A model generated the notes under the pieces. That model worked only from the letters and a program-made list of their open reading frames with translations, searched no databases and was not told the origin of the DNA. The translations under genes and the position numbers were made by a program. DNA of 64,000 bases from the NCBI GenBank assembly GCA_002337145.1, contig DDFK01000003.1, positions 1 to 64,000 on the forward strand, written 5' to 3'. Every line of letters starts with the position of its first letter. Position 1 is the stretch's first letter. Below, in pieces: positions 8,526 through 41,056 of the stretch. This stretch comes from Chitinophagaceae bacterium UBA1930. Lineage in GTDB: Bacteria; Bacteroidota; Bacteroidia; Chitinophagales; Chitinophagaceae.

Positions 8526-8900
8526 GTGGTTTTGCGGCTTTTACGAATTTATTGTAATAAAGTGTCGTCAAACCTAGAATGGGAACATGGAAATGCTAAA
8601 GTAGGCCAAGCTATGAAAGCTTCGTTGGCCGCTCACGCCGCCGCCATGGAAATTACAGATCCGGTATATATCAATCGCCCGCGCAATAGGGCAAACAGTC
8701 GCAACCGCCCATATGGCGGATCATTCATGGGTGGAGCAATCTATGGCCTAAACGCCCTTAAACTAACCGGTAAGTCCATTGAAGAAGAAAGGGAATGGCA
8801 AAACCAAAGGTTGCAATCCTTATTACCTGATGAAATCGTAAACCTTGTCTTAGAAACCAGAAAGGTCAAAGAAAAAGGGTTTAAAGACTTAAGGGATTAG
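8526..8900 (+). CDS. Hypothetical protein (start uncertain; an internal Met at MKASLAAHAAAM is plausible)
   Basis: ORF only. Confidence 0.2.
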   Translation: MVLRLLRIYCNKVSSNLEWEHGNAKVGQAMKASLAAHAAAMEITDPVYINRPRNRANSRNRPYGGSFMGGAIYGLNALKLTGKSIEEEREWQNQRLQSLLPDEIVNLVLETRKVKEKGFKDLRD

Positions 8901-15185: not shown

Positions 15186-15968
15186 ATGATACCTAAAGCG
15201 TATATAACAGCATGGAGAAACAAGGCTCCTTGGCAGGAAGATTACCAAGTGGAGCAAGACCTGGTAATTGAACGGTCGTTGATGGCTATTTATGAGGATG
15301 ACTTTCTCAGAAAGCGGCTTGCTTTTAGAGGCGGAACCGCCCTGCATAAGTTACACTTAGCACCGGCGGTCAGATACTCAGAAGATATTGATCTTGTTCA
15401 AATTGAAGCAGAAGCCTTTGGCCCTGTTATAGATAGGCTAAGAGAGGTATTATTGTTTTTAGGCGACAACCCTATCAGGAAGCAAAAACAGCATAACAAT
15501 ACTCTGATATATAGATTTAATTCCGAAGATGATATTCCCCTTCGATTGAAGGTCGAGGTAAACTGTCGTGAACATCACACAATTTACGGCATTAAAGAAA
15601 TGAGGTACAAAATGGATTCTGAATTGTACAAAAGTGAGGTTCTCATCCCTACCTATGAATTAGCTGAATTGTTAGGAACTAAAATGAGAGCAATGTATCA
15701 ACGTAGTAAAGGAAGGGATCTTTTTGATATGTGGTACGCGATAAAACAAACTGGTATTGAATCATCCAGGATTTTGGACGCATGGAATTTTTATATGGAG
15801 CATGAAGACCATAGTATTTCTAAGCAAGAATTTATTGATAATATGGGAAAAAAGGCTGTAGATCGAGAATTTATCAACGACATGCAGGGGCTTCTCAGAC
15901 CGGGAATTCTTTATGATGCACAGGAAGCATATGAATTTATAGCAATCAAACTATTGGAAAGAATCTAA
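15186..15968 (+). CDS. abiEii: AbiEii/AbiGii-family nucleotidyltransferase toxin
   Basis: Contains the LAFRGGTALHKLHL motif and the SEDIDLV acidic motif of DUF1814/AbiEii nucleotidyltransferases. 260 aa. Confidence 0.85.
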   Translation: MIPKAYITAWRNKAPWQEDYQVEQDLVIERSLMAIYEDDFLRKRLAFRGGTALHKLHLAPAVRYSEDIDLVQIEAEAFGPVIDRLREVLLFLGDNPIRKQKQHNNTLIYRFNSEDDIPLRLKVEVNCREHHTIYGIKEMRYKMDSELYKSEVLIPTYELAELLGTKMRAMYQRSKGRDLFDMWYAIKQTGIESSRILDAWNFYMEHEDHSISKQEFIDNMGKKAVDREFINDMQGLLRPGILYDAQEAYEFIAIKLLERI

Positions 15969-15969
15969 G

Positions 15970-17493
15970 ATGAAGAAGATAATCAATGAAAAATTGCCTG
16001 CGGAGTGGGCTATATCTAAACTGTCAGATATAGCTCATATCAATATGGGCCAATCTCCTTCATCCGACACGTATAATTTGGAAGGGGTCGGCTTGCCTTT
16101 TTTTCAGGGGAAAGCGGAGTTCGGGGATATTTACCCTAAAGTCCAAAAATTTTGCTCGTCGCCGCTCAAAACAGCCGAAAAGGATGATATACTTATTTCG
16201 GTCAGAGCCCCGATTGGACCTACAAATTTAGCACCGCAAAAATGTTGTATTGGTAGAGGGCTTGCGAGCATAAAAACTTTTGGAAATATATCACACCGGT
16301 ACCTTCTCTATTACTTAAGATTAATAGAAAAGGAAATAGTGGAATTGGGAACGGGTACTACATTTAAAGCCGTATCAAAAAGTAATATAGAAAACATAGA
16401 TATTATTATTCCTCCTTTAGAAGAACAAAATGCTATAGTTGCAAGAGTTGAAGAACTTTTTAGTGAATTAGATAATGCTTCTTTAAAGTTAAATGAACTA
16501 ATCATAAAGCTAAATATCCATAAGCAATCATTTTTTAAAAGCATTTTTAGTGAAGGGATTGCTTTCAAAAAGCAAGAGTTCACACCATTAAAAGATATCA
16601 GTACTATTGTCGGTGGAGTTACTAAAGGCCGTGATCTAATAAACCGGGAAACAGTTGATTTGCCTTATTTAAGGGTAGCAAACGTTCAGGATGGCTACTT
16701 AGATCTTTCCGAAGTGAAGACAATTACTGTACTCCCTTCGGACAAGGAAAAATATCGGTTGGAACATGGCGACATACTATATACTGAAGGCGGTGATCGC
16801 GACAAATTAGGAAGAGGCACAGTTTGGAAAGGAGAGATCAAAGACTGTATCCATCAAAACCATGTATTTCGAGCGAGATTATCAACACCTAATTTCGATG
16901 CAAAATATATTTCATACTATTCACAGTCAAAAAATGCTAAGGATTATTTCTATATCAATGGCAAGCAGACTACCAACCTGGCATCAATAAATATCACTAT
17001 TCTATCTAATCTGCTTATTCCCGTTTGTCCGATTGAGGATCAGGTAAAAATTGTTGAAAAAATTGATTACTATATCAGTATTTACAATTATGCAAAATGT
17101 CGAATGCAGGAAGCTATTCAGGATATTACAATTTTAAAACACGGAGTACTAACTAAAGCCTATACAGGCCAACTTTTGTCCCCAATCAACACAAGCTCTA
17201 TTGAGGAATTATTTAAAGTAATTGAAATGGAAAAAAACGAACAACTTCAAAATAGCAAAAAGCGTGAAAAGCCATTACAAAGAGTGGCCAGAAAGGCAAG
17301 TCAGGGACAAACTATCATGCAAGTGTTAACGAATGCCGTCACACCATTGTCTGCTAAAGCTGTCTGGGAAAAAAGTATTTACAAAGGAAACATAGAACTC
17401 TTCTATGGTGAACTCAAAAAACTTCAGCACTTGGTAATTGAAGAGAGAAAAGGTTTTCTGTCACTTAAAAAACAAAATCAAGATGAGAATTGA
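15970..17493 (+). CDS. hsdS: Type I restriction-modification specificity subunit
   Basis: 507 aa with two target-recognition-domain halves separated by conserved coiled-coil regions (LEEQNAIVARVEELFSELD). Starts with LPAEWAISKLSDI. Confidence 0.9.
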   Translation: MKKIINEKLPAEWAISKLSDIAHINMGQSPSSDTYNLEGVGLPFFQGKAEFGDIYPKVQKFCSSPLKTAEKDDILISVRAPIGPTNLAPQKCCIGRGLASIKTFGNISHRYLLYYLRLIEKEIVELGTGTTFKAVSKSNIENIDIIIPPLEEQNAIVARVEELFSELDNASLKLNELIIKLNIHKQSFFKSIFSEGIAFKKQEFTPLKDISTIVGGVTKGRDLINRETVDLPYLRVANVQDGYLDLSEVKTITVLPSDKEKYRLEHGDILYTEGGDRDKLGRGTVWKGEIKDCIHQNHVFRARLSTPNFDAKYISYYSQSKNAKDYFYINGKQTTNLASINITILSNLLIPVCPIEDQVKIVEKIDYYISIYNYAKCRMQEAIQDITILKHGVLTKAYTGQLLSPINTSSIEELFKVIEMEKNEQLQNSKKREKPLQRVARKASQGQTIMQVLTNAVTPLSAKAVWEKSIYKGNIELFYGELKKLQHLVIEERKGFLSLKKQNQDEN

Positions 17494-19063
17494 TAAAGTG
17501 CACATAAAAACCAGATTCAAAAATCTGGAGGATTTCAGAATTGATATCGACGAGAAAGCCATGGAGACGGTTTTGTTGGGACTCAACGCGACCGGAAAAT
17601 CCAATTTTATGGAAGCACTGGTGATAATATTCAGAGATTTGGATCTGACTTTTAATTACAATAGGAAACAGTTTCCCACTTTTGATTTTTATATAAAGTA
17701 TGAGTGTCGTAGCCACATTGTGGAAGTGAGCCATGATAATAATAAATATTCTTTTGTTGTCGATGGCTCTTCTGAAACTACTGCTTTTACAAGGAGTATC
17801 GATCAATACCTGCCTAAACACATATTTATATATTATTCTGGTATAAGCGATAGGTTGCAAGACCTCTACATACCCCATCAAAAACTTTACTACGATCAGA
17901 TAATAAAAGAGCACGCTAAGAAAGAAAACTTCAACACGATCCGCCGGATCTTTTTAGCTCAAAATGTTCATGCCAATTTTGCGTTAATCGCTTTTTATCT
18001 TTTTCCTGACCAGTCAAATGAAACACTACAATTTTTAAAACAGGAACTAAAGATTACAGACTTTGGATCTGCACTGTTTATGCTTAAGGAACCAGCTTGG
18101 GTTCAACCAAAAAATAAAACTGAATTGTTTTGGGGCGCAGATGGCCTTGTGAGAAAGTTATTGGACGATCTATATGAAATAGCTTTCGCACCTATCGAAG
18201 AAAAGGCAAGGGTCAATGTGAGTTACAAAAAAACGGAAACCCAACACCGAAAGTATTTATTCATCAAAGACCTGAATGATTTTAAACAACTAATCGATGC
18301 AAAATATAGCAACAAGATTGAATTGTTTAATGCTTTAGAAAGCATCCACATTTCTGATCTTTTACATGATGTAAAAATTACTGTTGATAAGGAATCGGTC
18401 GATGGCGAGTTAGCTATGAGCGAGCTTAGCGAGGGCGAAAAGCAGCTATTGACAGTTTTGGGATTACTGAAATTTACCAAAGATGAAGAATCTCTGATAC
18501 TACTTGACGAGCCGGACACCCATTTGAACCCGATTTGGAAATGGAAATACCTCGATTATTTGGATAGTGTTGTGAAGAGGCAAGACACAACGCAAATTAT
18601 ATTTTGTTCGCATGACCCTTTAGTGATTGGAAACCTAAAAAGGAACCAGGTACAGATATTTAAAAAGAATGAGGAAGGTAAAACAGAGGCATTTAATCCT
18701 TTTATCAGTCCGAGGGAAATGAGTGTTTCTAAGATACTGACCAGCGAATTGTTTGGAATACCATCTTTAATCAGCAAGAAACTTGAAGACCTGCTCAATC
18801 AGAAACGCCATTTGCAAGCCAAGCTTACAAATGGGGAATTACCAGAAGATGAAAGATTAGAGTTTGAGCGGTTAAAAAAATATTTTGATCGTATAGGATT
18901 CGATGATGATACGACGGACAGCAGATATAACAGGTTTTTGCAGCTTACAAGTGAGAATGAAGCCTTTGTTAATCGTAAATATACCAAAGCTGAGGAAGAG
19001 GAATTGGACAGAATTTCCCGCGAAGTGCTTGATGAAATAACAAAAGAAGAGAAAAAAGCATGA
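17482..19063 (+). CDS. ptuA: AAA15/ABC-type ATPase, Septu PtuA-like
   Basis: Start overlaps the hsdS stop (atgagaattga). Walker A motif LLGLNATGKSNFMEAL. ABC-signature-like LSEGEKQLL followed by Walker B LLLDEPDTHLNP. Size and architecture match PtuA (from memory). Confidence 0.55.
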
Positions 19064-19938
19064 GGTATATAGACAATAGCAGACTTGAGCAAGTAGCAAT
19101 TGATATTGGATGGGATGCCGTCAGGCAAAACCATATAAATAATATGGTTGGATTAAGCATAGCTGACAGAAAGGTCTATATAACAGATCATCCTGACTGG
19201 AATATGTTTCAGCCCCACATGCTTGCTCTTTCGCATAATAAATGTTGGTATTCTGAAGCTCCTATCGGAAATGGCGATTTTGAGGTGGATCATTTTCGGC
19301 CTAAAAATAAATCGAAACAGAAAATTGACTACACTAATACCAAGAGCAAATCTGTCGTTCACAAGGAAAATGGTTATTGGTGGAAGGCATATGATTGGGA
19401 TAATTATAGATTGGCTGGAGCATTGGCGAACAAACTCAGAAGGGATCGTCTTGGTGACTGTGAAGACGTAAAAGGAAAAGGAGATTATTTCCCTCTTGAT
19501 CTGGCATTGGGCCGAGTTGCAAATGACGAAGAAAATTTAACTTGTGAAGAACCTGTATTATTAGACCCCACAAATCCGGTAGATGTGTCCCTTCTCACTT
19601 TCGACAAAGGAATTCCTATTCCCGCGACGACAGACGATGAGGAAATAGATAGAGTTAAGCAATCGATATTTTATTATCACCTCGACTTGGATCAGCTTAA
19701 TACTGCAAGAAAAATAGTTTGGGATGATTGTGTAGCCCAAATAAAGGATGTTAAGAAAAATATAGACAATTCTGCACCAGCAGTGAAAAAAGCAATGATA
19801 AGGAAGTGCTTTGAAGAGTTAATTAAATTGGTGGATTCCGAAAGAAAATCATATACGAGCACTGCAAAAGCGTGTATGATGGTCTATTCAGAACTTGATG
19901 GATATTCCTGGTTAAAAAATTTAGTAAGAACGTTATGA
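19060..19938 (+). CDS. ptuB: HNH endonuclease, Septu PtuB-like
   Basis: HNH motif CWYSEAPIGNGDFEVDHFRPK. 292 aa. Translationally coupled to the ATPase (4-bp overlap) and to hsdM downstream. Confidence 0.5.
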   Translation: MRYIDNSRLEQVAIDIGWDAVRQNHINNMVGLSIADRKVYITDHPDWNMFQPHMLALSHNKCWYSEAPIGNGDFEVDHFRPKNKSKQKIDYTNTKSKSVVHKENGYWWKAYDWDNYRLAGALANKLRRDRLGDCEDVKGKGDYFPLDLALGRVANDEENLTCEEPVLLDPTNPVDVSLLTFDKGIPIPATTDDEEIDRVKQSIFYYHLDLDQLNTARKIVWDDCVAQIKDVKKNIDNSAPAVKKAMIRKCFEELIKLVDSERKSYTSTAKACMMVYSELDGYSWLKNLVRTL

Positions 19939-21368
19939 CAACAAACAACCTTGTACAGAAAATATGGTCATTTTGCGATACGTTGCGGGATGATGGCTTG
20001 GGATACAATGATTATCTTGAGCAGCTAACTTATCTGCTGTTTCTCAAAATGGCCGATGAGAATAAAAATAAATACAGCTTGCCGGACATCTGTGACTGGA
20101 AGAGCCTTGTAGCCAATAAAGGCGGGGAACTACTGGATCAGTATGAGAAAATATTGAAAACACTTGCAGATTCCGGCGGCATGTTAAAAAAGATTTTTTC
20201 AGGTGCACAAAATAAAATTCATGACTCATCAAAATTGCAGCGCCTTATTAATCTGATTGACGAAGAAAATTGGACATCCACAGGTTACGATATCAAAGGG
20301 GAAATTTACGAGTCACTGCTCCAAAAAAATGCTGAAAATAGTGGAGCTGGTCAATATTTTACTCCAAGATCCGTAATTCAAACCATAGTCGAATGTATAA
20401 AACCTCAGCCTTCAGAAACGATAGCAGATCCCTCCTGCGGCACAGGTGGCTTTTTTTTAGGCGCACTGGAATATTTAAATAGAAGTAAGCTGAGCCAAAC
20501 AGAACTAAAATTTATAAAGTTTGATACATTTCATGGATGGGAAATAGAAAAGGCAACAGCACGCCTTTGCTTAATGAATCTTTACTTGCATGGTGTAGGT
20601 GACCTGAAAAAGACACCTGATATACAGGTTACGGATAGCTTGAAAGCAAGCGACATTAAAAAAGTAAAAATAGTATTGGCTAATCCACCTTTTGGCAAGA
20701 GCAGTAGTGATATTCCTACGAACGACGCAAAAATGGCCGAAAAAGATGGATATTTTTTAAGAGAAGATTTCTGGGTAACAACAAGTAACAAGCAACTTGC
20801 TTTCTTACAACACATAGTGAATATGTTGGAGGATAATGGCCGTGCTGCCGTTGTTCTGCCAGATAATGTACTTTTTGAAGGAGGCGCTGGTGAAATAATC
20901 CGTCGCAAACTTCTCGAAGACGTTCATTTACATACTATTCTGCGATTGCCTACGGGTATTTTTTACGCCCAGGGAGTCAATGCCAATGTACTGTTCTTTG
21001 ATAAAAAGCAAGTTTCTAAAAAGACAAAAAAAGAAGTTTGGTTATACGACTACAGAACAAATATTCATCATACCCCTAAAAAGAATCCATTGTCCTTTAA
21101 CAGCCTATTGCCGTTCATTGAGTGTTATAACGAAAAGAAAAGGAAGGAAACATGGGGACAAGACAATCCACAAGGACGTTGGAAAAAATATAGCCATGAG
21201 GAGATATTAGCCAGAGATAAAGTAAATTTTGACATAACCTGGCTTAAAGATGGAAATTCAATTGATATGGATGCATTACCAGAACCAGATGTATTAATTG
21301 GTGAAATCATAGATAACTTAGAAATCGTACTCAACAACCTGAGAAATGTAAAGGATTCGGTGTCGTAA
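19935..21368 (+). CDS. hsdM: Type I restriction-modification N6-adenine DNA methyltransferase subunit
   Basis: Contains the LANPPFG (NPPF) catalytic motif and the SAM-binding DPSCGTGGF motif. The HsdM N-terminal domain is present. Confidence 0.9.
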   Translation: MTTNNLVQKIWSFCDTLRDDGLGYNDYLEQLTYLLFLKMADENKNKYSLPDICDWKSLVANKGGELLDQYEKILKTLADSGGMLKKIFSGAQNKIHDSSKLQRLINLIDEENWTSTGYDIKGEIYESLLQKNAENSGAGQYFTPRSVIQTIVECIKPQPSETIADPSCGTGGFFLGALEYLNRSKLSQTELKFIKFDTFHGWEIEKATARLCLMNLYLHGVGDLKKTPDIQVTDSLKASDIKKVKIVLANPPFGKSSSDIPTNDAKMAEKDGYFLREDFWVTTSNKQLAFLQHIVNMLEDNGRAAVVLPDNVLFEGGAGEIIRRKLLEDVHLHTILRLPTGIFYAQGVNANVLFFDKKQVSKKTKKEVWLYDYRTNIHHTPKKNPLSFNSLLPFIECYNEKKRKETWGQDNPQGRWKKYSHEEILARDKVNFDITWLKDGNSIDMDALPEPDVLIGEIIDNLEIVLNNLRNVKDSVS

Positions 21369-21373
21369 TCAAC

Positions 21374-23023
21374 ATGACTGAATATGAAAAAATAAGAGCG
21401 TTTGAATATGATGTTTTAGACCAGCATTATAAGAACTACTTATTTTATCAATATCCAGATGATATAGTAATCCCATATTTGTTGCAGACTTATGGAGATA
21501 CTGAAAGGCATAGAGACAATTTAGTTCGCACTGGCCATGATGAAACCAGCTTGTCTTTCTATTTGAACAATATGCTTCATGGTTTAGGCCATTGCATACG
21601 ATGGATGGTTAATAGTAATAGTTCAGAAATTAAAGAAGTCTCAAATCTCACATATAGGCAGATACATGAAATGGCTGCTGATTTTCTTGGCTGGGGAACG
21701 GGCTATCATATGATTGCGCAGGAATTTGTTACATGGTCACGCGGCATTAAGGAAGCGATGCTGGACGAGGATAAAAAAACTATTACATTTATTAATCCCA
21801 ATGGCTACGAGTACAGTAAAATCTACGGAAGCCAATTATTATATGCCAAAAGGATGGCAGCAATATTTAATAGCTATCCGCATGAAGAAATGGACAAAGA
21901 ATTCGGCGAATGGATTCGAGAAATAGATTTTACTAAGCCTCCAATAGTCAACCATATTAAATGGCAACGAGGAAGAAGTTCTGTATCATATCCTCTACTA
22001 TGTTTAAAGATGAGGGATTTACTATTCCCTGAATTGGCTGAAACAACAGACTTTCAAGGGTATAATCTCCAGCAGCTTCGTCAATTTTACGCCCTTGTTT
22101 TCCTAAATTTTCATTTCATTCGGTGGGTTGAAGCAGAATTAGATTCGCGTGCCGGGGATGATAATTTGTCTTTTGGTTCTAACCCTCTTGAACTGAACCA
22201 ACAACAGTTTGAAAAATTTATTTCAGATATTACAGGGCTTGCATTAGATGTGTCAAGAGCAATTATTGCCGATCTGACATTTGATCCTTCCAGTTTTCAT
22301 ACGAGCGTTAGCATTCAACCTTTTATTCGTTCGCTCTCTGGAAATTATCACATATTGCCCAACTTATTTGCACAGTTAGAACCTTCCAGAATGATTCTTG
22401 GTGCCTTAAATAAAGGGCCAAAGAAAAGGATATACGGTACTTTAATTAACACAATCGAAAAAGTAAACCTGAGCTTGCTATATGATTCAATTAGAGGTAT
22501 CGAAGGTAGTATTTGTTATCTCGAAAAGCAGATTAAACACAATGGGCAAACGATAACACCTGACCTAATACTGATAGATACTATAGAGAAGCTCTTATTG
22601 GTTGCCGATTACAAACATTTTATTGGCCCTATAACAGCTTCTGAAGTTGATTATAAGATGAGGGAACTTGAAAAAGCCATCAATCAGGTGACAAAATATA
22701 TTGAACATCTTTCCCTGTTCCCGAAGGTTGATTTACTAAATATTGAGGGGTTCTCCGTTGTTGGGCTGATCATTACACACAAACTTTTGCCTGTTCTCAT
22801 TCCAAAAAAGGAATCAATTCCAATTGTTGATATGGAATCATTTATGGAGGATACTAACTTCATAATCCAAAATAATCAGCATTTACATGCTTTAGCACAG
22901 AAAGTACAGACAGATTCTGCGAAAGCTTCCGAAGTTGAGTTTAATGATTTTGAATCAGAAATTAATGTTAGTGATTGGATAATTAAGCGAGCTCAACATA
23001 AACTCAATTTAAAAAGAAAGTGA
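21374..23023 (+). CDS. Hypothetical protein with a C-terminal PD-(D/E)xK-like nuclease motif
   Basis: No recognisable N-terminal domain. Near the C-terminus, PDLILIDTIEKLLLVADYK gives PD-x15-DYK spacing as in restriction-endonuclease-fold proteins. Co-oriented with hsdM, 6 bp downstream of it. Confidence 0.4.
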   Translation: MTEYEKIRAFEYDVLDQHYKNYLFYQYPDDIVIPYLLQTYGDTERHRDNLVRTGHDETSLSFYLNNMLHGLGHCIRWMVNSNSSEIKEVSNLTYRQIHEMAADFLGWGTGYHMIAQEFVTWSRGIKEAMLDEDKKTITFINPNGYEYSKIYGSQLLYAKRMAAIFNSYPHEEMDKEFGEWIREIDFTKPPIVNHIKWQRGRSSVSYPLLCLKMRDLLFPELAETTDFQGYNLQQLRQFYALVFLNFHFIRWVEAELDSRAGDDNLSFGSNPLELNQQQFEKFISDITGLALDVSRAIIADLTFDPSSFHTSVSIQPFIRSLSGNYHILPNLFAQLEPSRMILGALNKGPKKRIYGTLINTIEKVNLSLLYDSIRGIEGSICYLEKQIKHNGQTITPDLILIDTIEKLLLVADYKHFIGPITASEVDYKMRELEKAINQVTKYIEHLSLFPKVDLLNIEGFSVVGLIITHKLLPVLIPKKESIPIVDMESFMEDTNFIIQNNQHLHALAQKVQTDSAKASEVEFNDFESEINVSDWIIKRAQHKLNLKRK

Positions 23024-23090
23024 AGCTTTTAATAACGAGAAGGGATATAATGCGACCCTTTTTGCAGATGAAAATATAAAGAGCTACAAA

Positions 23091-26000
23091 ATGAATGGTC
23101 AATTAAATCGCTCCGAGGAGGTACGAAAGGCAAAAGAGGAATCTGAAAGGTCAGATTTGAAGCAACATGCCGATAAAATGCTTCGTGATTTTGAAAAGTT
23201 CAATGACTTTTCTTCAAACAGAGCAATCTGGGAACTGGTTCAGAACGCCTGTGATTTAACCGTACATTGTGAGGTTACCATAGACTATAGATACAATAAA
23301 TTCTTGTTCACTCATAATGGACGGGCATTTAATTCTAATTCGCTTATTTCCCTCGTTAAGCAAGTGTCAGGCGATAAGGACGAGAATAGTGAAATACCAC
23401 CAGTAGGTAAATATGGCACCGGTTTTCTAACTACTCATTCTCTGGGCAGAAAATTTATTATCAATTCAATTTTGCAATCTTCTTCAGGACATTTTATTGA
23501 AATAAACGATTTTCTCATAGATAGAAGTCCTAAAAAATGGGAAGAATTAAGTGAGCAGATCAGGTTACAGAAAGATCGAGTTTTTGAGATCATAGATAAA
23601 ACCGGAAAAATTATTGAGCATCCTGAGCAGCGGACAACTTTTACATACTTTCCGGAGACTGAACAAGAGATAAAGTACGTTGCTGAATCCTATCGCGACC
23701 TCGAAGAGTACGTTCCAATAGTCATAACTATAAATAGCAGGCTTAAGTCTGTTAAAGTAATTTCGCCTGATGGCGATGTGACTGATTTTACCATGTCCAG
23801 CAAACAAGAAATACCGAATGAAGCAGGCATTAAACTCTATAAAACGTCAATCAAGAAAAATGGTGAGGATAAGGTCATATACTCAATTGCAGAACCTGAC
23901 AATGAAATCGAAATTATCTTACCCATAGATAAGGATCTAACCCTATTCGATTTGCCCAAGCGGGTTGCAAGGTTGTTCCTTTACTATCCTTTGATTGGTA
24001 CGGAAGGCTTCGGCATTAATTTCATCATTAACTGTAATCAATTCCTGCCAACGGAACCAAGAGATGGAATACATCTTAACAGCAACAAGGATCAGGTTAA
24101 AGATCAGGAAGAGGCAAACAAGCTTTTGATAGACAAAGCCTCTGAACTTCTATTTAGATTCCTAAATAGCAATATCCTGGTGGTGAAAAACCCATTGCTG
24201 TACGCCAACATTAATTTCAAACGAACAACTGACAATGTTCTGCTGAATAAATATTTTGTTGACCTACAGGAAAAATGGGTAAGCCATTTTAAGAATCTTG
24301 AAATAGTTGAGACTAAAACAGGCCACAAGAAGGTTGCGGAGGTCACCTTTCTTGACCCAGAGTTATTGGGTAAAGAAGAATATTTCGATTGTATATACTA
24401 CTTATTTGATAAATTCTATACTGACATTCCTTCTCAGGGGACAATTAAGTACTGGAGCCTTTTTGTAAATAAATGGGAATATTCTGAAGCTACTTTCATA
24501 AGCAACGATGATATAACGAAACAAATACAAGAATGTTCCCTAACTGATTTTGATGACCGGCTGCTTAAAAAATACTACGGATATTTGTTAGGCGAAAGGC
24601 ATACCGATCTTTTCACGGAAAATAGATTGTTGCCAAACATAGACGGCGAATTTCAGTATCTGAACAACTTAAAGCAACCTCGTGATTTGGATAGCCAATT
24701 GGTAAATGTTGGCAAAACTCTTATTGCCGACGCAATATCTCAACTGGTCAACAAAGATTTCTCTTTTGATTTCAAATTTGATACTTATGGAAGAAAAGAC
24801 TTTACAAATAGTGTTAATGCAAAGTTGAGCAATGAATTTATCGACAATTGCATTTGCTTACCGGAGGTCTACAACACTGATGATTACATCACAGATGTGG
24901 AAGTCAATTCGGCCCTTTTGGATAGGAACTACTTTTTAGCGGTTCTGAACTTTTGTAAACTACAAAACAATATTAATTCACATAGCAAGCCCTCAAAGTT
25001 GATGGGGCTAATAAGCGACTATTACCATATTGATAATAGGCTTGTACATATTGAACCTGTAAGTAATAAGGAAGATGATATTGATATACGACAGGCTCAA
25101 AAAAATCTTGTAAGGGTATTCTTCAGTACGTTGGCCAAGCATACTCAAGTATGGATTAAAAACAATACAGCGTTACTACTTGAAATTGCACTTTATAATG
25201 AAGACCGATATAAAGATGTTTATTCAACATCAAAAATATATCCAAACCAGCTTTACAAGCTTTGCTATCTTGCAGAATTGAAGAAGGCGATCAACCTTGA
25301 TGATTATATAATCGACTTGTATAACAGGACATCTGGTAAAACCATTGAAGGGTCACTCGTTGAGACCAATTTCAATGAGTTCCTTGTTGAAAATGAAACG
25401 GTAATGAATAAAACTCTGTCAAGCGCAATTGAAGAAGTTTTCTTCGAGACAGACATCCGTGATATCAATGAACACCCTTTTAAAGAAGATATCCTGATTA
25501 TTATAGCAAAATTAAACACAGTTACTTACAAAGAGCTTTTCCCTCGCTTAGACGATAAAAAGGCAAACTTAATGTTGGATATTGTCACTAACGAAAATAC
25601 CAAAGATGATATTTTTGCAATCGTGACTTTGAAAGAAGAACAACTAAAGAAACTTGGAAAAATTGTTCAATCACCCAACTTTGAAGAAATACTCTCTAAA
25701 GCTGAAGATGCAATAAGATTAGAAAAGGAAAGAAGATCCGACTTTGAACACAAATATAAAATAGGAACCTACATTGAAGACAAAATACGCGAAAAGCTTG
25801 GAGTCGCTATTTCATCCAAGCTTCTGGTAGATAAGGATAAAGAGATAGGTGCGGAAGATGTTCAAGGGGGGCAGGATATTATAATATCCTATGATGAAAC
25901 TGCGCTATATTTTATAGAGGTAAAATCAAGATGGGATTCCAGGAATTCAGTTTCAATGAGTAAGTTACAATTGGAAAGGGCTTCCGAGAATGTTGACAGG

Positions 26001-26294
26001 TATTCTCTCGTGTCAGTGGATGTTACTAAGTATAAGGGTACAAATGACAGATATGAGCTTCCGTTAAATGAAATAATCCCCTTAATAAAAGTGGTTGATA
26101 AAATTGGGCAAAATGTCCATCCGCTGATTACTAACAATCTTGTTGCTGAACGTGACCTGTCTTCTGCTGTCAAACTGATTGATTATAGAGGTATTGTTAA
26201 CCAAGATTTCATTAATGCGGGTACTGATTTTGACACTTTCTTGGATACTTTAATAGAATATTTGAAACTTGCTGTATCTAATATGAAACCCTAA
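23091..26294 (+). CDS. GHKL (Hsp90/MORC-type HATPase) plus C-terminal DUF3883-like nuclease domain protein (NO VEIN-like)
   Basis: Bergerat-fold motifs WELVQNACD (motif I), THNGRAF (motif II) and GKYGTGF (motif III). A C-terminal DIIISYDETALYFIEVKSRWD segment fits D..E.K of DUF3883/PD-(D/E)xK. There is no Walker A motif and no helicase motif, so this is not HsdR. Confidence 0.55.
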   Translation: MNGQLNRSEEVRKAKEESERSDLKQHADKMLRDFEKFNDFSSNRAIWELVQNACDLTVHCEVTIDYRYNKFLFTHNGRAFNSNSLISLVKQVSGDKDENSEIPPVGKYGTGFLTTHSLGRKFIINSILQSSSGHFIEINDFLIDRSPKKWEELSEQIRLQKDRVFEIIDKTGKIIEHPEQRTTFTYFPETEQEIKYVAESYRDLEEYVPIVITINSRLKSVKVISPDGDVTDFTMSSKQEIPNEAGIKLYKTSIKKNGEDKVIYSIAEPDNEIEIILPIDKDLTLFDLPKRVARLFLYYPLIGTEGFGINFIINCNQFLPTEPRDGIHLNSNKDQVKDQEEANKLLIDKASELLFRFLNSNILVVKNPLLYANINFKRTTDNVLLNKYFVDLQEKWVSHFKNLEIVETKTGHKKVAEVTFLDPELLGKEEYFDCIYYLFDKFYTDIPSQGTIKYWSLFVNKWEYSEATFISNDDITKQIQECSLTDFDDRLLKKYYGYLLGERHTDLFTENRLLPNIDGEFQYLNNLKQPRDLDSQLVNVGKTLIADAISQLVNKDFSFDFKFDTYGRKDFTNSVNAKLSNEFIDNCICLPEVYNTDDYITDVEVNSALLDRNYFLAVLNFCKLQNNINSHSKPSKLMGLISDYYHIDNRLVHIEPVSNKEDDIDIRQAQKNLVRVFFSTLAKHTQVWIKNNTALLLEIALYNEDRYKDVYSTSKIYPNQLYKLCYLAELKKAINLDDYIIDLYNRTSGKTIEGSLVETNFNEFLVENETVMNKTLSSAIEEVFFETDIRDINEHPFKEDILIIIAKLNTVTYKELFPRLDDKKANLMLDIVTNENTKDDIFAIVTLKEEQLKKLGKIVQSPNFEEILSKAEDAIRLEKERRSDFEHKYKIGTYIEDKIREKLGVAISSKLLVDKDKEIGAEDVQGGQDIIISYDETALYFIEVKSRWDSRNSVSMSKLQLERASENVDRYSLVSVDVTKYKGTNDRYELPLNEIIPLIKVVDKIGQNVHPLITNNLVAERDLSSAVKLIDYRGIVNQDFINAGTDFDTFLDTLIEYLKLAVSNMKP

Positions 26295-26491
26295 CAATTT
26301 TCAGCATGTGAGTAAAGTTGAGGAAGAAAATTATAGTCTAATTAGGGCTGGTGAAAGAAAAATACATTCATTAGTCATGCTTTTTTCAAAATGTTATAAT
26401 TCAATCACTTAACCTATCTTAAGGCTATCCAAAAACGTTAAAAAGGGTATAAGGTGTTCGATTGAAGTCCCTTCCAGCCCGCCAAACAATT

Positions 26492-26577
26492 GGAGCGTTG
26501 ACCGAAACGGTAAGGTACTGGTATGCTAAACCAAGGTTGGGGTAACACCCAAGTAAGTTCGATTCTTACACGCTCCG
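26492..26577 (+). tRNA. tRNA-Ser (anticodon GCU), class II with a long variable arm
   Basis: Acceptor ggagcgt/acgctcc forms 7 perfect base pairs. U8 is present. 3-bp D-stem acc/ggt with a loop containing GG. Anticodon stem tggt/acca with loop atGCTaa (U33, A37). Variable stem gggt-aac-accc. T-arm gtaag-ttcgatt-cttac. Discriminator g. No encoded CCA. Confidence 0.65.
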
Positions 26578-26611
26578 CTTACACCCTCTCCTTTAAGAGG
26601 GGTTGGGGAGA

Positions 26612-26687
26612 GGTGCTTTGGCAGAGATGGTTCTACTTGCATTACTCTGAAGAAGTAATTATCTGAGTTCGATTCTCAGGGGCACCA
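26612..26687 (+). tRNA. tRNA-like sequence, possibly tRNA-Phe(GAA) or a pseudo-tRNA
   Basis: Acceptor ggtgctt/gggcacc has 5 Watson-Crick and 2 G-U pairs. Perfect anticodon stem ttact/agtaa with loop cuGAAga. Perfect T-arm ctgag-ttcgatt-ctcag. The D-loop is 12 nt (atypical). The 5' part overlaps a hairpin cctctcc...ggagagg. Total length 76 nt. Confidence 0.35.
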
Positions 26688-26909
26688 CATTATATAACAA
26701 CCAAAAAACACAGCTATGCGTGTACTTGTAATGAAATAGTTGATACCACAATTCAACTATACATATTAACCATTATTAAGAAAAAGCTGATGTAGCCAGC
26801 TGCATTGCTGCTATTGAGCACCGGTTGCGTCGCACCCATCAACACCTTATTGTTTATTGGGCAACACACAATCAACATCACTTTACACAATAGTACAAAC
26901 CAAAACAAC

Positions 26910-28076
26910 ATGATACCAATTATAATACTCATCGTACTTGCAAGGCTTATTGTTGCTGCATTTCCGGCAATGAGGCAAGCATTTCAATTACAATGGCAAA
27001 GAATAAAACAAGCATTGAAAAAAAGAAAAATGGTGGGTCTGTTCGACGAACACTTTATTGAAGCCAAAGCTTTTTATTTCAAGGAATTTAAAACCATTCC
27101 GTGTATTGCCTACATAGGTGGTGTAAACACAGGTGAAATTTTTAAGCTGATTCAAGAAGGCAAATACGGCAAGGTAGAAGCAACCTATCAACGCAACTAT
27201 TACAACTGGCAACAGGAACGGATAGAGTTTGCCAAAACCATCTTTAAACTGGAAAACAACATGATGGTAAAGCTGGGTGACGATTGGTTGGAAATATTGT
27301 TTAGCAACAAAGATTACGACAAGGCCAACAATATGCTGCACGAGTTCAAAACATTGAAAGCTCCGCAAAAGGAAGATGATTACGAGATCAACATCATATC
27401 CCGAAGCGGCGGCTCATTGGATCTTAAGACACTTGCAATAAAGCCCACACCATTGGATCTGGACCTTTATTACAATAATGATTTCAAGGCAGTAGATGCC
27501 ACCATTAAAGAAAGGTTACTGAAAGCAAACGACAAAGGCATTGTATTGCTGCACGGCCTGCCCGGTACCGGTAAAACAACCTACCTAAGACACTTGATCG
27601 GCAATATGAAAAAGCAGGTAATGTTTGTATCGCCCAGCGTAGCCGACAACTTGATGAACCCGGAGTTTATGGATCTATTGATAGATAACCCAAACTCCAT
27701 ACTGGTAATTGAAGATGCAGAGAACATTATCATGGACAGAAGGTTCAGCAGCCAAAGTAGCGTAAGCAACCTGCTGAACATAAGCGATGGTTTACTGAGC
27801 GACTGTTTGAACGTACAGATCATCTGCACATTTAACAGTGACCTGAACATGGTAGACAGTGCCCTGCTACGCAAAGGAAGGTTGATAGCCAAGTACGAGT
27901 TTGGCAAACTGCATGTAAGCAAAGCAAGGGCATTGAGCCAGCACTTAGGCTTGCAGCAAGAGATAAACAAACCCATGACTTTGGCAGAGATCACCAACCC
28001 GGGCGAAACCCATTACCAACCTAAACAGGTAAACGTAATTGGCTTTAGAAGAATGGAAGAATTGATTGAAAACTAA
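26910..28076 (+). CDS. AAA+ ATPase with an N-terminal transmembrane anchor
   Basis: Walker A LLHGLPGTGKTTYL, Walker B ILVIEDAEN, and a sensor/arginine finger in DSALLRKGRL. A hydrophobic N-terminus (MIPIIILIVLARLIVAAF) is present if the start is at 26910. The ORF extends to 26805, but that extension covers a repeated 17-mer and looks non-coding. Confidence 0.7.
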   Translation: MIPIIILIVLARLIVAAFPAMRQAFQLQWQRIKQALKKRKMVGLFDEHFIEAKAFYFKEFKTIPCIAYIGGVNTGEIFKLIQEGKYGKVEATYQRNYYNWQQERIEFAKTIFKLENNMMVKLGDDWLEILFSNKDYDKANNMLHEFKTLKAPQKEDDYEINIISRSGGSLDLKTLAIKPTPLDLDLYYNNDFKAVDATIKERLLKANDKGIVLLHGLPGTGKTTYLRHLIGNMKKQVMFVSPSVADNLMNPEFMDLLIDNPNSILVIEDAENIIMDRRFSSQSSVSNLLNISDGLLSDCLNVQIICTFNSDLNMVDSALLRKGRLIAKYEFGKLHVSKARALSQHLGLQQEINKPMTLAEITNPGETHYQPKQVNVIGFRRMEELIEN

Positions 28077-28097: not shown

Positions 28098-28604
28098 GTG
28101 TGGCATACAAAACCAAACAACATGCAACAGCGGCAATGGCGGCGGTTAAATGGATCCATTATTAAAACATCTATTGAAGATGAAGTAAGATCCATGCTGA
28201 TAAAAGAAAGGGAACACGGTAACCATATCAAAGTATGCATTGGTACCGATAGCCAGGTTAAAAACAGGGAAACGGAATTTGCAACGGTAATTGTATTTGT
28301 ACGTAAAGGCAAAGGTGCTTTTATGTACATACACAACGAAACCACCCAACGCAAAATGCCCATCAAAGAGCGTATGCTGGACGAGGTTTCCCGGAGCATT
28401 GATGTAGCTTATAGCTTATGCAAGCTCTTCATTGCTTTTAATGTGGACATGGAAATACATGCAGACATCAACACCAATCCAAATTTCAAAAGCAACAGTG
28501 CTTTAAAAGATGCCATGGGCTACATCATGGGTATGGGTTTTGCCTTCAAGGCCAAGCCACATGCTTTTGCCAGCAGCCAATGTGCAGACAGGATGGTGCA
28601 TTGA
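28098..28604 (+). CDS. YkuK/DUF458-like RNase-H-fold protein
   Basis: Contains HIKVCIGTDSQVKNRETEFATVIVF, resembling the conserved acidic core (IGTDS) I recall for DUF458 RNase-H-like proteins. 168 aa; start uncertain. 21 bp downstream of the ATPase on the same strand. Confidence 0.45.
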   Translation: MWHTKPNNMQQRQWRRLNGSIIKTSIEDEVRSMLIKEREHGNHIKVCIGTDSQVKNRETEFATVIVFVRKGKGAFMYIHNETTQRKMPIKERMLDEVSRSIDVAYSLCKLFIAFNVDMEIHADINTNPNFKSNSALKDAMGYIMGMGFAFKAKPHAFASSQCADRMVH

Positions 28605-28831
28605 AATACCGGATGGTTCACACTCTTGGCATGAGCCACTCTTTTAAAATATGGTTGCTGTAAATAGCAACACAAAAGCTTGCCCAACGGCAAGAAGGGT
28701 TTATTACATAACAGCACAAACCAGATGCGAGTTTACAAAGCTCCGTAGTACAGACGTAATAACTATCTGTATGCTATTGAATGTTATGGATAGGTCCTCC
28801 ATCCGCCAATGTCTCAAAAACAATGGCCTTT

Positions 28832-28910
28832 AGTCACAGGTTCGAATCCTGTTCCATCTGTATAAGATGGATAGTTCAGCGGTAGAACACTACACTGTCA
28901 CTGTAGAAAA
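28832..28910 (+). ncRNA. Circularly permuted tRNA-Asp-like element
   Basis: The T-arm acagg-ttcgaat-cctgt plus the 3' acceptor strand tccatct-g are followed by a 4-nt linker (tata). Then come the 5' acceptor strand agatgga (7 of 7 pairs with tccatct), U8-A9, D-arm gttc-agcggta-gaac, and the anticodon arm ctaca-ctGTCac-tgtag (anticodon GUC, U33, A37). This is the 3' portion placed before the 5' portion. Confidence 0.35.
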
Positions 28911-29218
28911 GAAGGAGACCATCGCTCCTTTATCAAATGATGACCAGGTAACAAAAGCAGGTGCACTGAATCGGCAGCTTTTATACGTCTTAGCAGAGGA
29001 TAGTAAAAGCCGCAACAATTCAATCGGCACTTTGCAAGAAGCAAACAACAATGCAGCATGTATGGCTTTTACTGCAATCGTTTACTGAAGATACATCAGT
29101 AAGCAATTAAGGAACAACCCCTGCACTACGTATTGTATCCATCTTCTTCCGTAATGGTAGAATGATTCAATGCAACTGCTTTTACATTTTTAATGAACAA
29201 AAAACAAAACAAACTATT

Positions 29219-30316
29219 ATGAAAAACATAAACATTAACGCCTACCAAGTAGGTTTGGTTTTTAAGAAAGGTGTGTACCAACGCATGTTACAAGAAGGTA
29301 GCTATTGGTTGTGGAACGAACAGGTAATTGTATACGACAAATTCAAACCATTTGACCCATCAGTTGATTTGGGCGTCTTTTTGCAGGATGCCGAATTGGC
29401 CAATGCATTGCATGTGGTAGATGTTATGGACAATGAGATTGTGTTGATGTACGAGAACAACCTGTTGAAACAAGTATTGCAGGCTGGCCGTTATGCATTC
29501 TGGAAAACCTCTACAGACTTGCGTTTCGTAAAAGCCGACATCAGCAAAATTGATATTGACCAAAGCATTGCACCAAATACTTTGACCAACAAATTGGTAG
29601 TTGGTTATGTACGTACCTCTACAGTTGAAAGCTACGAGAAAGCATTGCTGTTTGTAGATGGTAAATACCAGCACATTTTGGATAGCGGTGTATATTACTG
29701 GTGGAAGAACAATACCATTGTTACAGTGGGTAAAGTGGATATGCGTCAGCAACAAATCGAGATCAATGGCCAGGAGATTTTGACCAAAGACAAAGCTGCT
29801 TTGCGTATCAATGCCTTTGCACAGTACAAAGTAGTTGATATTGAGAAAGCCTTGTTGCAAAACAAAGAGTACGACAAACAATTGTACGTTGCTTTCCAAC
29901 TGGCTTTGCGTGAGTACATTGGCAGCATGGGCTTTGACGAGCTGTTGGAAAAGAAAGATACCATTGCCGCTTTTGTACAGGAACGTGTAAACAGCAATGC
30001 CGCAGCATTGGGTATTGAAGTGGCCGGTTTCGGTATCCGTGACATCATATTGCCTGGCGATGTAAAAGACATCATGAACCAGGTATTGGTAGCGGAGAAG
30101 AAAGCACAAGCCAACACCATCATGCGTAGGGAAGAAACAGCGAGTACCCGTAGCCTGTTGAACACAGCCAAACTGATGGAAGAAAACGCCATGTTGTGGA
30201 AGCTGAAAGAAATGGAATACGTGGAAAAGATTGCCGACAAGATCAGCAACATCAGTGTTAACGGAAACGGTGACCTGGTGGGTCAGTTGAAGCAGATCTT
30301 TGTACCCCAGAAATAA
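29219..30316 (+). CDS. SPFH/band-7 (slipin-family) protein
   Basis: C-terminal half matches the SPFH/prohibitin core (ILTKDKAALRINAFAQYKVVDIEKAL ... GIEVAGFGIRDIILPGDVKDIMNQVLVAEKKAQAN). Start assigned to MKNININAYQ; the upstream ORF extension is probably non-coding. Confidence 0.8.
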   Translation: MKNININAYQVGLVFKKGVYQRMLQEGSYWLWNEQVIVYDKFKPFDPSVDLGVFLQDAELANALHVVDVMDNEIVLMYENNLLKQVLQAGRYAFWKTSTDLRFVKADISKIDIDQSIAPNTLTNKLVVGYVRTSTVESYEKALLFVDGKYQHILDSGVYYWWKNNTIVTVGKVDMRQQQIEINGQEILTKDKAALRINAFAQYKVVDIEKALLQNKEYDKQLYVAFQLALREYIGSMGFDELLEKKDTIAAFVQERVNSNAAALGIEVAGFGIRDIILPGDVKDIMNQVLVAEKKAQANTIMRREETASTRSLLNTAKLMEENAMLWKLKEMEYVEKIADKISNISVNGNGDLVGQLKQIFVPQK

Positions 30317-30496: not shown

Positions 30497-31933
30497 ATGA
30501 GCAAATTAAAAATAACAGCCAAAGAGCTGCGGACAATCGGTTACCCCGAAAGCCCGGTAATTCCTGTTGCCATGAATGCAATGGAAAAACATTATAAACA
30601 CAACACAAAGGAGGAAGTAATGGGGATTTTAAAAGCGGTGCTGGCATCTCCTATTGAATACAAGAATGATGCAGTACTTGGAATGATAGCAGAAAAGCTA
30701 TTGCCCAAAGAAGATGTAGGTGAACCGGAAATTTCATTGAACAATACAGGCGTTCACTTCAACACTTTTGGTGCGGAACATATTGAGCAGGGTGCATTCC
30801 ATCAAATGTACAGTGCGGTTAAACTGCCCATTGCTGTTGCAGGTGCATTGATGCCCGATGCACACCACGGTTATGGACTGCCAATTGGCGGCGTGTTGGC
30901 AACAGACAATGCAGTGATACCCTATGGCGTTGGTGTGGATATTGGTTGCCGCATGTGCTTGAGCATTTTTGATATTGATGCCAAAGAGCTGACAAACAGG
31001 GAGCAATATTTTGCAAGGGAGATAAACGAAGCAACCTTATTTGGTAGCGGTGCCATGTTTAAACAGGCAGATGACCATGAAGTGATGGAGAACGAAGCAT
31101 TCTTTAGTACACCCTTGCTGAAAGGCTTGCATGGCAGGGCCTGGAAGCAGTTGGGCACTTCTGGAAGCGGTAACCACTTTGTGGAATTTGGTGCCGTGAC
31201 CATTACGGAGAAAGACGAAATACTGGGCGTTGAACCTGGTAACTATATAGGTTTGCTGAGCCACTCTGGCAGCAGGTCTTTGGGTGCAAGGATTGCAGAG
31301 CATTACACCAAAATTGCTATCAGCAAAAGGCGTTTGCCACAAGATGCAAAGAACCTTGCATGGTTGAACATGAACGAAGAAGCAGGCATGGAATATTGGA
31401 TTGCCATGAATTTGGCAGGCGATTATGCGAGTGCATGCCACCATATCATTCATGCAAAGATTGCAAAACAGTTGGGCCGCAAACCAATGAAAGTGGTAGA
31501 GAACCACCACAACTTTGCATGGAAGGAAATGCTGGATGGCAAGGAAGTAATTGTGCACCGTAAAGGGGCCACGCCTGCCGGTAAAAATGTGTTGGGCATC
31601 ATTCCCGGTAGCATGACCGCTGATGGCTTTATTGTGAAAGGCAAAGGTGAAGTAGCGTCTATTAATTCTGCAAGCCACGGTGCGGGTAGAAAGATGAGCC
31701 GTACACAGGCCTTGGCCAACATAACACACAATGCATTGAAAGATGAATTGGCAAAGTTTGGCGTTAAGTTGTTGGGTGGTGGTTTGGACGAAGCCCCGTT
31801 TGCTTATAAAGACATTAACGAAGTAATGCAATCGCAAACTGCATTGGTGGATGTGGTGGGCAAGTTCACACCAAAGATTGTGAAGATGGATGGCACGCAA
31901 CCGAAACAATGGAAGAAAGGGAAGCCTGAATAA
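30497..31933 (+). CDS. rtcB: RNA-splicing ligase RtcB (3'-phosphate/5'-hydroxyl RNA ligase)
   Basis: Metal-binding and GMP-histidine motifs are present: MPDAHHGYGLPIGGV, GVDIGCRM, GSGNHF, LSHSGSR, VENHHNFAW, IIPGSM and SASHGAGRKMSR. Alignable to E. coli-type RtcB from memory. Carries an N-terminal extension of ~60 aa; start uncertain. Confidence 0.9.
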   Translation: MSKLKITAKELRTIGYPESPVIPVAMNAMEKHYKHNTKEEVMGILKAVLASPIEYKNDAVLGMIAEKLLPKEDVGEPEISLNNTGVHFNTFGAEHIEQGAFHQMYSAVKLPIAVAGALMPDAHHGYGLPIGGVLATDNAVIPYGVGVDIGCRMCLSIFDIDAKELTNREQYFAREINEATLFGSGAMFKQADDHEVMENEAFFSTPLLKGLHGRAWKQLGTSGSGNHFVEFGAVTITEKDEILGVEPGNYIGLLSHSGSRSLGARIAEHYTKIAISKRRLPQDAKNLAWLNMNEEAGMEYWIAMNLAGDYASACHHIIHAKIAKQLGRKPMKVVENHHNFAWKEMLDGKEVIVHRKGATPAGKNVLGIIPGSMTADGFIVKGKGEVASINSASHGAGRKMSRTQALANITHNALKDELAKFGVKLLGGGLDEAPFAYKDINEVMQSQTALVDVVGKFTPKIVKMDGTQPKQWKKGKPE

Positions 31934-40915: not shown

Positions 40916-41056
40916 TGTTAACCTAATGTTTACACAAAATTAATCTTACCCATCTGTATTCCTGTTATTTGCCATTATGTAATTGTTAAGTGTGATAAAT
41001 TCGGCAAAAAACGGCAAAGCAGCCATTTGGAACTATTTTTGCTCTTTATACAATCC

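Follow-up and report, generated by a model that had tools for sequence, protein, structure and literature searches.

A Tiamat protein and a predicted PD-(D/E)xK nuclease of an unnamed family as the last genes of an HsdR-less type I/Septu operon

Closest described systems and the TmtA protein

Tiamat consists of one gene carrying a PD-(D/E)xK domain (bioRxiv 10.1101/2024.10.26.620412) and is counted as a single-gene defence system (PMC12781566). Upx (Gao_Upx) is a single-protein PD-(D/E)xK defence nuclease and terminase sensor of ~1250 amino acids (aa) (PMC13099982, PMC13601566). Type I restriction-modification genes enter into Ronin, in which hsdMS without hsdR is joined by the effector RonA, a 61-aa membrane peptide, and into EcoprrI, which harbours the anticodon nuclease PrrC (bioRxiv 10.1101/2023.04.06.535777), as well as into MADS (mad1-8), a methyltransferase/specificity/ATPase operon without HsdR in which MAD6, MAD7 and MAD8 are mandatory. 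Here we compare with these systems a locus on contig DDFK01000003.1 of Chitinophagaceae bacterium UBA1930, a member of the Bacteroidota, of which we analysed positions 1 to 64,000 (the 64-kb stretch hereafter called the window). Two open reading frames (ORFs) follow close behind hsdM, the gene for a type I adenine methyltransferase, and both exist, co-oriented with it, as the initial annotation of this DNA had described them.

21374..23023, + strand: p549 (our label for the 549-aa protein encoded here); ORF; member of an unnamed family of ~545-aa proteins; terminal gene of the hsdS-PtuA-PtuB-hsdM operon.
23091..26294, + strand: TmtA, 1067 aa; ORF; PADLOC PDLC03967.

We lean towards the view that two defence genes, separable from each other, have been added to the downstream end of a mosaic cargo operon and that this operon belongs to a conjugative or mobilisable element. 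The view is built on what the two proteins are, how they fold and which catalytic residues they conserve, on the layout of the operon and on the separability of the genes. A functional tie of p549 to the HsdR-less cassette is possible. The Tiamat identity of the 1067-aa protein removes most of the apparent mystery of the locus, which is therefore not to be counted as a new two-gene system; the value that remains lies in p549, a widespread, unannotated nuclease family whose fold is modelled with confidence and whose possible link to orphan HsdMS modules can be put to the test.

The 1067-aa protein had initially been held not to be assignable to any named system. It matched the PADLOC TmtA model PDLC03967 from end to end (E 2.7e-282, 937.9 bits, residues 10-1059 on profile positions 4-1061 of 1063), which identifies it, at the level of sequence, as full-length TmtA, the one protein that makes up the anti-phage system Tiamat. 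The GHKL plus DUF3883/NOV_C architecture first read from the bare sequence was borne out, since Pfam NOV_C and an NCBIfam sacsin-type ATP-binding domain both scored above their cut-offs, with Pfam HATPase_c_3 just under its own. The features that mark a Tiamat protein, intact Bergerat motifs and a C-terminal NOV_C/DUF3883 PD-(D/E)xK nuclease, were both found, and the motifs quoted beforehand (ELVQNACD at aa 48-55, GKYGTGF at aa 106-112 and D929...E943-V-K945) lie where they had been placed.

23208..24080, + strand: N-terminal sacsin/MORC-type GHKL (Bergerat) ATPase with adjoining transducer-like region of TmtA.
23232-23255, + strand: TmtA ATPase motif E48-N52-D55 (ELVQNACD, aa 48-55).
23313-23330, + strand: TmtA ATPase motif H75-N76-G77.
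23406-23426, + strand: TmtA ATPase motif GKYGTGF, G106-F112.
25834..26105, + strand: C-terminal NOV_C/DUF3883 PD-(D/E)xK nuclease domain of TmtA.
25875-25877 and 25917-25925, + strand: TmtA candidate catalytic residues D929 and E943-V-K945, respectively, with Q960 as a further candidate.

Residues E48, N52, D55, G106-F112, D929, E943 and K945 were kept across 20-24 homologues, even at 21-26% identity. The family is large, with at least 643 homologous clusters, roughly ten times the 73 that the same search method returned for p549. No solved structure was related to TmtA by sequence, IMG/VR gave no match and a plasmid collection gave remote partial matches only. What the protein has in common with Tiamat is thus the end-to-end profile match and the architecture of a GHKL ATPase joined to a NOV_C nuclease; we saw no structural difference, and what sets the window copy apart is its setting, behind p549 as the last gene of an hsdR-less type I/Septu operon. 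Plant NO VEIN, sacsin and MORC have the sacsin/MORC-type ATPase fold and the NOV_C nuclease domain in common with TmtA, but they are eukaryotic, have other partner domains and non-defence roles, and the likeness is at the domain level only.

By this architecture, the GHKL ATPase would drive an ATP-dependent dimerisation, clamp or switch that licenses the C-terminal NOV_C nuclease, and the nuclease, of the PD-(D/E)xK type, would cut nucleic acid during infection. The discovery of Tiamat is reportedly due to Millman et al. in 2022; in the preprint of the original Tiamat paper the system is neither named nor described.

A parallel to the setting of TmtA exists in the literature. In the Hma locus of Halomonas meridiana, PtuA1/PtuB1 lie between HmaA, a Snf2 helicase with a NOV_C nuclease, and HmaB, a DUF1156 methylase (PMC11232893), and the window offers a similar picture, with PtuAB set inside a methyltransferase module and a protein with a NOV_C nuclease close by.

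The p549 family and its predicted nuclease fold

TmtA is already known; the p549 family is new to annotation libraries. Neither p549 nor its homologues had an above-threshold model in Pfam, PADLOC, NCBIfam or PHROGs, in line with the earlier remark that the protein has no recognisable domain besides its nuclease motif. A word-indexed search returned 73 clusters at 90% identity, of which all with a source name came from Bacteroidota, and an exhaustive profile search returned 596 clusters at 50% identity (106 with E<=1e-30), in which the relatives were mostly ~545 aa long and matched over their full length. No match was found in a phage collection, in a plasmid collection or in IMG/VR, and no sequence link to any solved structure.

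For the fold, we relied on an AlphaFold (AF2) model of p549, which had a mean predicted local distance difference test (pLDDT) of 87.8 and a predicted template modelling score (pTM) of 0.87, and on conservation.

21374..22408, + strand: N-terminal domain of p549, mostly alpha-helical, aa 1 to ~345 (model secondary structure).
21578-21604, + strand: conserved His/Cys-rich motif HGLGHCIRW of p549, aa 69-77 (conservation).
21704-21727, + strand: conserved His/Cys-rich motif YHMIAQEF of p549, aa 111-118 (conservation).
22415..22783, + strand: segment of p549 holding P396-D397 (nucleotides [nt] 22559-22564) and D412-Y413-K414 (nt 22607-22615).

In the model, p549 folds as a helical N-domain followed by a canonical PD-(D/E)xK core (D397, D412, K414), with E424, K434 and Q438 on the helix after D412-Y413-K414 and a short beta-hairpin at the C terminus. 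P396-D397 and D412-Y413-K414 were invariant in 31 homologues, and the C-terminal PD-(D/E)xK reading made beforehand from the letters alone agrees with both results. The motif had been written as PD-x15-DYK; it is real, but the spacer is 14 residues, a trivial difference.

Foldseek searches with the model gave Upx as the sole significant solved-structure match (E 9.8e-7, template modelling score 0.42 over 567 columns), and the structural neighbours further included FokI/BspD6I-like nucleases. Upx proteins are ~1200-1270 aa long and have three domains, an N-terminal sensor, a middle domain and a C-terminal nuclease (PMC13099982). The sensor recognises phage terminase, and the C-terminal domain (715-1272) carries D1161/E1176/K1178 and alone keeps partial Mg2+-dependent nuclease activity on single-stranded DNA (PMC13099982, PMC13601566). 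It is the fold of this C-terminal domain, with its PD-(D/E)xK core, that p549 has in common with Upx, whereas the N-terminal sensor and the middle domain have no counterpart in its 549 aa. At the level of sequence, the Upx-like Pfam model PF28173 and all PADLOC models failed to match p549 or 30 homologues. Alignment with hhalign against one Upx-like sequence gave E 0.1 and covered the nuclease core only; against a 25-sequence Upx-like profile, p549 residues 7-492 aligned collinearly with Upx-like positions 780-1256, a weak match that takes in the N-terminal helical domain and is not significant (E 0.017, probability 2.6%). Sequence-level homology of p549 and Upx was rejected on these values. 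Judged from the model, p549 resembles a nuclease half of Upx that exists as a protein of its own and lacks the sensor.

Other family assignments fared no better. A Shedu-like (DUF4263) relationship, which the initial annotation had put forward as one possibility, was not upheld: SduA_C (SduA, DUF4263/PF14082) gave no match for the window protein and stayed below threshold in 6 of the 31 homologues (best E 0.005), PADLOC had no Shedu match for p549, and Upx and FokI-type nucleases scored above Shedu. NERD membership was likewise discarded, with sub-threshold matches in a minority of homologues only. An HsdR-like function was rejected for p549 and TmtA alike, as neither has, by Pfam, a superfamily 2 (SF2) helicase motor (ResIII/Helicase_C) together with an HSDR_N nuclease. 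On the model, p549 is best described as a defence protein that combines a regulatory domain and a PD-(D/E)xK nuclease in a single chain and that is attached, unusually and in a conserved manner, to HsdR-less type I/Septu cassettes. Such a protein would act as a Mg2+-dependent DNA nuclease whose active site is gated or targeted by the helical domain, and would most likely be a defence unit of its own, riding on the expression of restriction-modification-type operons.

Genomic setting, separability and alternative readings

The two genes close a co-oriented string with the order AbiEi-AbiEii-hsdS-PtuA-PtuB-hsdM-p549-TmtA (PADLOC, Pfam). The defence island that had been described here, with AbiE, type I restriction-modification and Septu-like genes, is therefore present, and its upstream members are the following.

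14382-15185, + strand: AbiEi (PADLOC, 3.3e-100), opening the co-oriented string.
15186-15968, + strand: AbiEii (PADLOC, 3.2e-107).
15970..17493, + strand: hsdS, type I specificity subunit (PADLOC Specificity_I, 1.3e-81; Pfam Methylase_S).
17438-19063, + strand: PtuA of Septu (PADLOC PtuA, 1.3e-164, alignment from residue 16).
19060-19938, + strand: PtuB of Septu (PADLOC PtuB, 6.7e-62).
19935..21368, + strand: hsdM, type I adenine methyltransferase (PADLOC MTase_I, 3.2e-180; Pfam N6_Mtase, 2.7e-72; NPPF motif at aa 250).

The Septu pair, a PtuA ATPase with a PtuB HNH nuclease, sits between hsdS and hsdM; 5 nt separate the hsdM stop codon from the p549 start, and 67 nt lie between the p549 stop codon and the TmtA start. 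As listed, the PtuA ORF begins with TTG and overlaps hsdS by 56 nt (17438-17493). Because the PADLOC alignment opens at residue 16, the real PtuA start is probably ~45 nt downstream, and hsdS and PtuA then abut without overlap. The Bacteroidetes -33/-7 promoter motif had no + strand site in 14-27 kb, so none lies between p549 and TmtA, and a scan for sigma-70 promoters, whose consensus does not apply to Bacteroidota, found 57 against 48.8 expected, which is no enrichment. We infer that p549 and TmtA are co-transcribed with the cassette, for which the absence of a promoter motif is weak evidence.

The absence of hsdR noted from the first was confirmed. No hsdR was found in the 64-kb window, either by Pfam searches of 30 ORFs (among them all those of >=500 aa) or by tblastn with a genuine HsdR, and none in the 10-kb flanks of related hsdM-linked loci. 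As far as these stretches reach, the window cassette resembles Ronin and PrrC/EcoprrI in having a type I M and S pair without an R gene and with tightly linked extra effector genes; the effectors differ, the window cassette linking PtuAB and a 549-aa PD-(D/E)xK protein. The likeness to MADS is that hsdM, hsdS and PtuA of the window match the mad2, mad5 and mad3 models of PADLOC, respectively. Assignment to MADS was rejected, as no mad6 or mad7 match was found in the window and mandatory parts are thus missing; the sole mad8 match (E 4.7e-5, 45 residues, P-loop level) falls in an AAA protein at 26805-28076, beyond the tRNA genes that follow TmtA.

We compared the contexts of p549 across 21 loci: besides the window, 12 come from species genomes and 6 from metagenome contigs, and the other 2 hold remote family members. 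The genome scan that gave 12 loci used an alignment of p549 homologues; with the single p549 protein as the query, the same scan gave 0 matches. The genes hsdS-PtuA-PtuB-hsdM stood directly upstream of p549 in 10 loci, and an 11th hsdM-linked locus held the same genes in a different order, not adjacent to p549. An AbiEi-AbiEii pair heads the cassette also in L011, L017, L018, L022, L035 and L036, and AbiEi only was detected in L034. Elsewhere, p549 followed a Type ISP gene and a methyltransferase gene (one locus, L016) or hsdR-YgjP (two loci, L019 and L038). A remote member (L041/L042), with ~35% identity as estimated from the bit score, stood alone between a Dam-like methyltransferase gene and an Mrr-like (Mrr_cat) gene, and remote family members adjoin toxin-antitoxin (TA), Mrr and DUF2726 genes in defence-like islands. 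The upstream genes of L021 were not identifiable, and L033 reaches the contig end on its upstream side.

Downstream of p549, TmtA was present in 7 of the 21 loci and fell into three subtypes. The first is a PDLC03967 form close to the window copy (window, L012, L032), the second a PDLC03967 form only 26% identical to it (L034, L036) and the third a ~2300-aa PDLC03970 form (E 1.7e-180) with a C-terminal superfamily 1 (SF1) helicase (AAA_11/AAA_12, MkoA-like), which occupies the slot right after p549 in two loci.

L017, 11696-18634: subtype 3 TmtA.
L035, 11697-18617: subtype 3 TmtA.

A NACHT protein followed p549 in L011. In L016 (11753-13102), L019 and L038 (11753-13078), the downstream gene encodes a conserved 449-aa AlbA_2 (Schlafen-type)/HATPase_c_4 protein, and in these loci, which are not linked to hsdM, a GHKL-like ATPase is therefore again found directly 3' of p549. 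The remaining loci had no co-oriented defence gene downstream of p549.

These contexts bear directly on the proposal, made with the initial annotation, that the two genes form one module. p549 occurred without TmtA in 14 of the 21 loci. Conversely, TmtA occurred without p549 in L029 (GajA-GajB-nSTAND5-TmtA), in L031 (behind a different four-gene operon) and in L044 (a stand-alone TmtA-like gene on a plasmid), none of which contained a p549-like sequence by hmmsearch at E<=1. In L017, L034, L035 and L036, p549 was 83-89% identical, whereas the TmtA neighbours of different subtypes were <32% identical. Between the window and L018, identity was 86% for hsdM, 86% for PtuA and 91% for PtuB but 58% for p549, and between L017 and L036, it was 89% for p549, 70% for hsdM and 28% for TmtA. 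Because gene identities between loci are discordant in this way, the cassette is a mosaic whose slots are refilled by recombination, and TmtA entered the slot behind p549 at least three times independently. p549 and TmtA are not an obligate unit, and neither appears to need the other. The proposed check on co-occurrence thus had a divided outcome: the adjacency does recur, in 7 of the 21 loci and with a link to hsdM, but each gene is also found without the other.

Several observations weigh against regarding p549 and TmtA as separable genes that merely share a location. In the Bacteroidota loci with identifiable upstream genes, p549 closes a restriction-modification-type operon and is co-oriented with it; in each of the 10 loci where hsdM directly precedes it, only 3-12 nt separate the hsdM stop codon from the p549 start and no hsdR is nearby, an arrangement that suits a subunit and a hitch-hiker equally well. 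TmtA follows p549 in 7 of 11 hsdM-linked loci but in 0 of 10 others (Fisher p 0.004, ignoring phylogeny), and it does so in three subtypes of <32% mutual identity, which is more than vertical inheritance. As this adjacency recurs with three TmtA subtypes and only at hsdM-linked loci, some non-random link of it to the hsdM cassette exists. We read it as a tendency of both genes to settle behind the hsdR-less hsdS-PtuAB-hsdM cassette, and functional synergy of p549 and TmtA is possible. The sample of loci is, moreover, small and phylogenetically non-independent, and the defence role that we propose for p549 draws on sequence, model and context. Its relation to Upx is structural only, given the non-significant hhalign probability and the lack of a sequence model match, and a protein without the Upx sensor domain may need a partner for activation.

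In the main rival reading, which we consider doubtful but arguable, p549 would cut DNA as the effector of the HsdR-less HsdS-PtuA-PtuB-HsdM cassette. In one version, it would act like a restriction nuclease, steered by what HsdMS recognises and by methylation status; in another, it would be a latent suicide or backup nuclease held by HsdMS and freed when phage anti-restriction proteins bind HsdMS, following the guard-or-decoy logic of Ronin and PrrC. The narrow gap after hsdM persists in all 10 loci, although p549 identity drops to 51%; hsdR is missing from the window and the hsdM-linked loci, the NPPF motif is kept in HsdM, and the resemblance to the C-terminal part of Upx without its sensor makes an external regulator plausible. 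Ronin and PrrC inside EcoprrI (bioRxiv 10.1101/2023.04.06.535777) and MADS are precedents, and in other contexts, too, p549 closes operons that contain a methyltransferase or R gene. Yet p549 proteins that are 72-77% identical to the hsdM-linked clade stand behind an unrelated Type ISP system, which has its own nuclease, and behind hsdR-YgjP, and remote family members stand alone. The cassette already has an HNH nuclease in PtuB, and the discordant hsdM and p549 identities (86% versus 58% in one comparison and 70% versus 89% in the other) argue against a co-evolving interface. A wider version, which we think unlikely, takes hsdS-PtuA-PtuB-hsdM-p549, often with TmtA, as one integrated HsdR-less immune system of Bacteroidota mobile elements, in which HsdMS would serve in recognition and self-marking or as an anti-restriction decoy and p549 would be the effector together with PtuAB and/or TmtA; if true, type I methyltransferases would have been rewired, in a new way, to nucleases other than HsdR.

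The model first proposed for the locus, in which p549 and TmtA together form one two-gene, ATP-dependent DNA-targeting system in the hsdR slot, is improbable. It can point to co-oriented neighbours with gaps of 2-67 nt in the 7 loci, to the involvement of all three TmtA subtypes (close PDLC03967, 26%-identical PDLC03967 and the 2300-aa PDLC03970 helicase fusion) and to the lack of a Bacteroidetes-type promoter motif between the genes. It has to contend with the 14 loci in which p549 lacks TmtA and with the TmtA-only loci, with the scoring of Tiamat as a single-gene system and with the absence of co-variation (83-89% identity for p549 versus <32% for TmtA); adjacency follows the hsdM cassette, not p549, and TmtA tails other operons, too, such as Gabija-nSTAND5. 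In E. coli, mrr and mcrBC adjoin hsdRMS, and p549 might similarly be a stand-alone Type IV (modification-dependent) restriction endonuclease parked by restriction-modification systems, with the helical N-domain reading modified phage DNA. Its consistent place beside methyltransferase or restriction operons, its PD-(D/E)xK core with FokI/BspD6I-like structural neighbours and the remote member between Dam-like methyltransferase and Mrr_cat genes are in keeping with this idea, which we nevertheless rate as very improbable, p549 matching no REBASE-type, PADLOC Type IV or Pfam model. Least credible of all is a non-defence housekeeping nuclease of the mobile element, acting in processing, resolution or entry exclusion. 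Most p549 loci do lie on elements with relaxase, coupling-protein and tra genes, but the position of p549 relative to the transfer backbone varies, it is always within defence or restriction-modification cargo and not among tra/mob genes, its remote members sit in the TA-, Mrr- and DUF2726-containing islands, and it is absent from the plasmid collection.

On the reading that we prefer, two separable genes at the cassette tail, p549 defending alone would be a new candidate for defence catalogues and would explain a recurrent "hypothetical protein" of Bacteroidota islands. If p549 instead depends on HsdMS or PtuAB, it extends the theme of Ronin, PrrC and MADS, in which type I modules are rewired to alternative effectors. 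In either case, the recurrence of three TmtA subtypes behind the cassette provides a concrete genetic setting for studying Tiamat.

Element boundary and other genes of the window

Upstream of the string that runs from AbiE to TmtA lie primase, relaxase and type IV coupling-protein genes (Pfam). G+C content is 0.355-0.383 between 14 and 26 kb, against mostly 0.39-0.46 on either side. On the 3' side, TmtA is followed by two tRNA genes, which likely mark the edge of the cargo region of the mobile element.

26492-26578, + strand: tRNA-Ser(GCT) (ARAGORN, Rfam), directly 3' of TmtA.
26612-26688, + strand: tRNA-Phe(GAA) (ARAGORN, Rfam).

Just 5' of these tRNA genes, at 26453-26484 on the + strand, we noted a 32-nt fragment resembling a tRNA 3' end, GGTGTTCGATTGAAGTCCCTTCCAGCCCGCCA. 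It may be an integration scar at the end of the mobile element. A second copy was sought in the window and none was found, so that no att repeat is definable, and no integrase was recognised among the window ORFs scanned.

Beyond the tRNA genes, an Rfam YrlA (Y RNA-like) match at 28809-28935 on the + strand covered the full model with 39.9 bits (E 1.3e-6), short of the gathering score (69), and overlapped a tRNA-like match of 29.1 bits. Four genes flank it.

26805-28076: AAA ATPase, 5' of the YrlA match.
28098-28604: PF04308 RNaseH-like gene, 5' of the YrlA match.
29162-30316: SPFH gene, 3' of the YrlA match.
30497-31933: RtcB gene, 3' of the YrlA match.

Taken together, this arrangement looks like an RNA-repair locus of the RtcB/Y-RNA type. 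Farther along the + strand, the 744-aa and 1141-aa proteins encoded at 41027-43261 and 44070-47495, respectively, had no Pfam match at E<=0.001. Just past RtcB, 32068-36660 (+ strand) encodes a 1530-aa protein with many TPR repeats and a C-terminal CHAT protease domain, an architecture typical of conflict systems, and upstream of the primase and relaxase genes of the element, a small ORF at 8526-8900 (+ strand) gave an Imm5-like immunity-protein match (E 1e-8).

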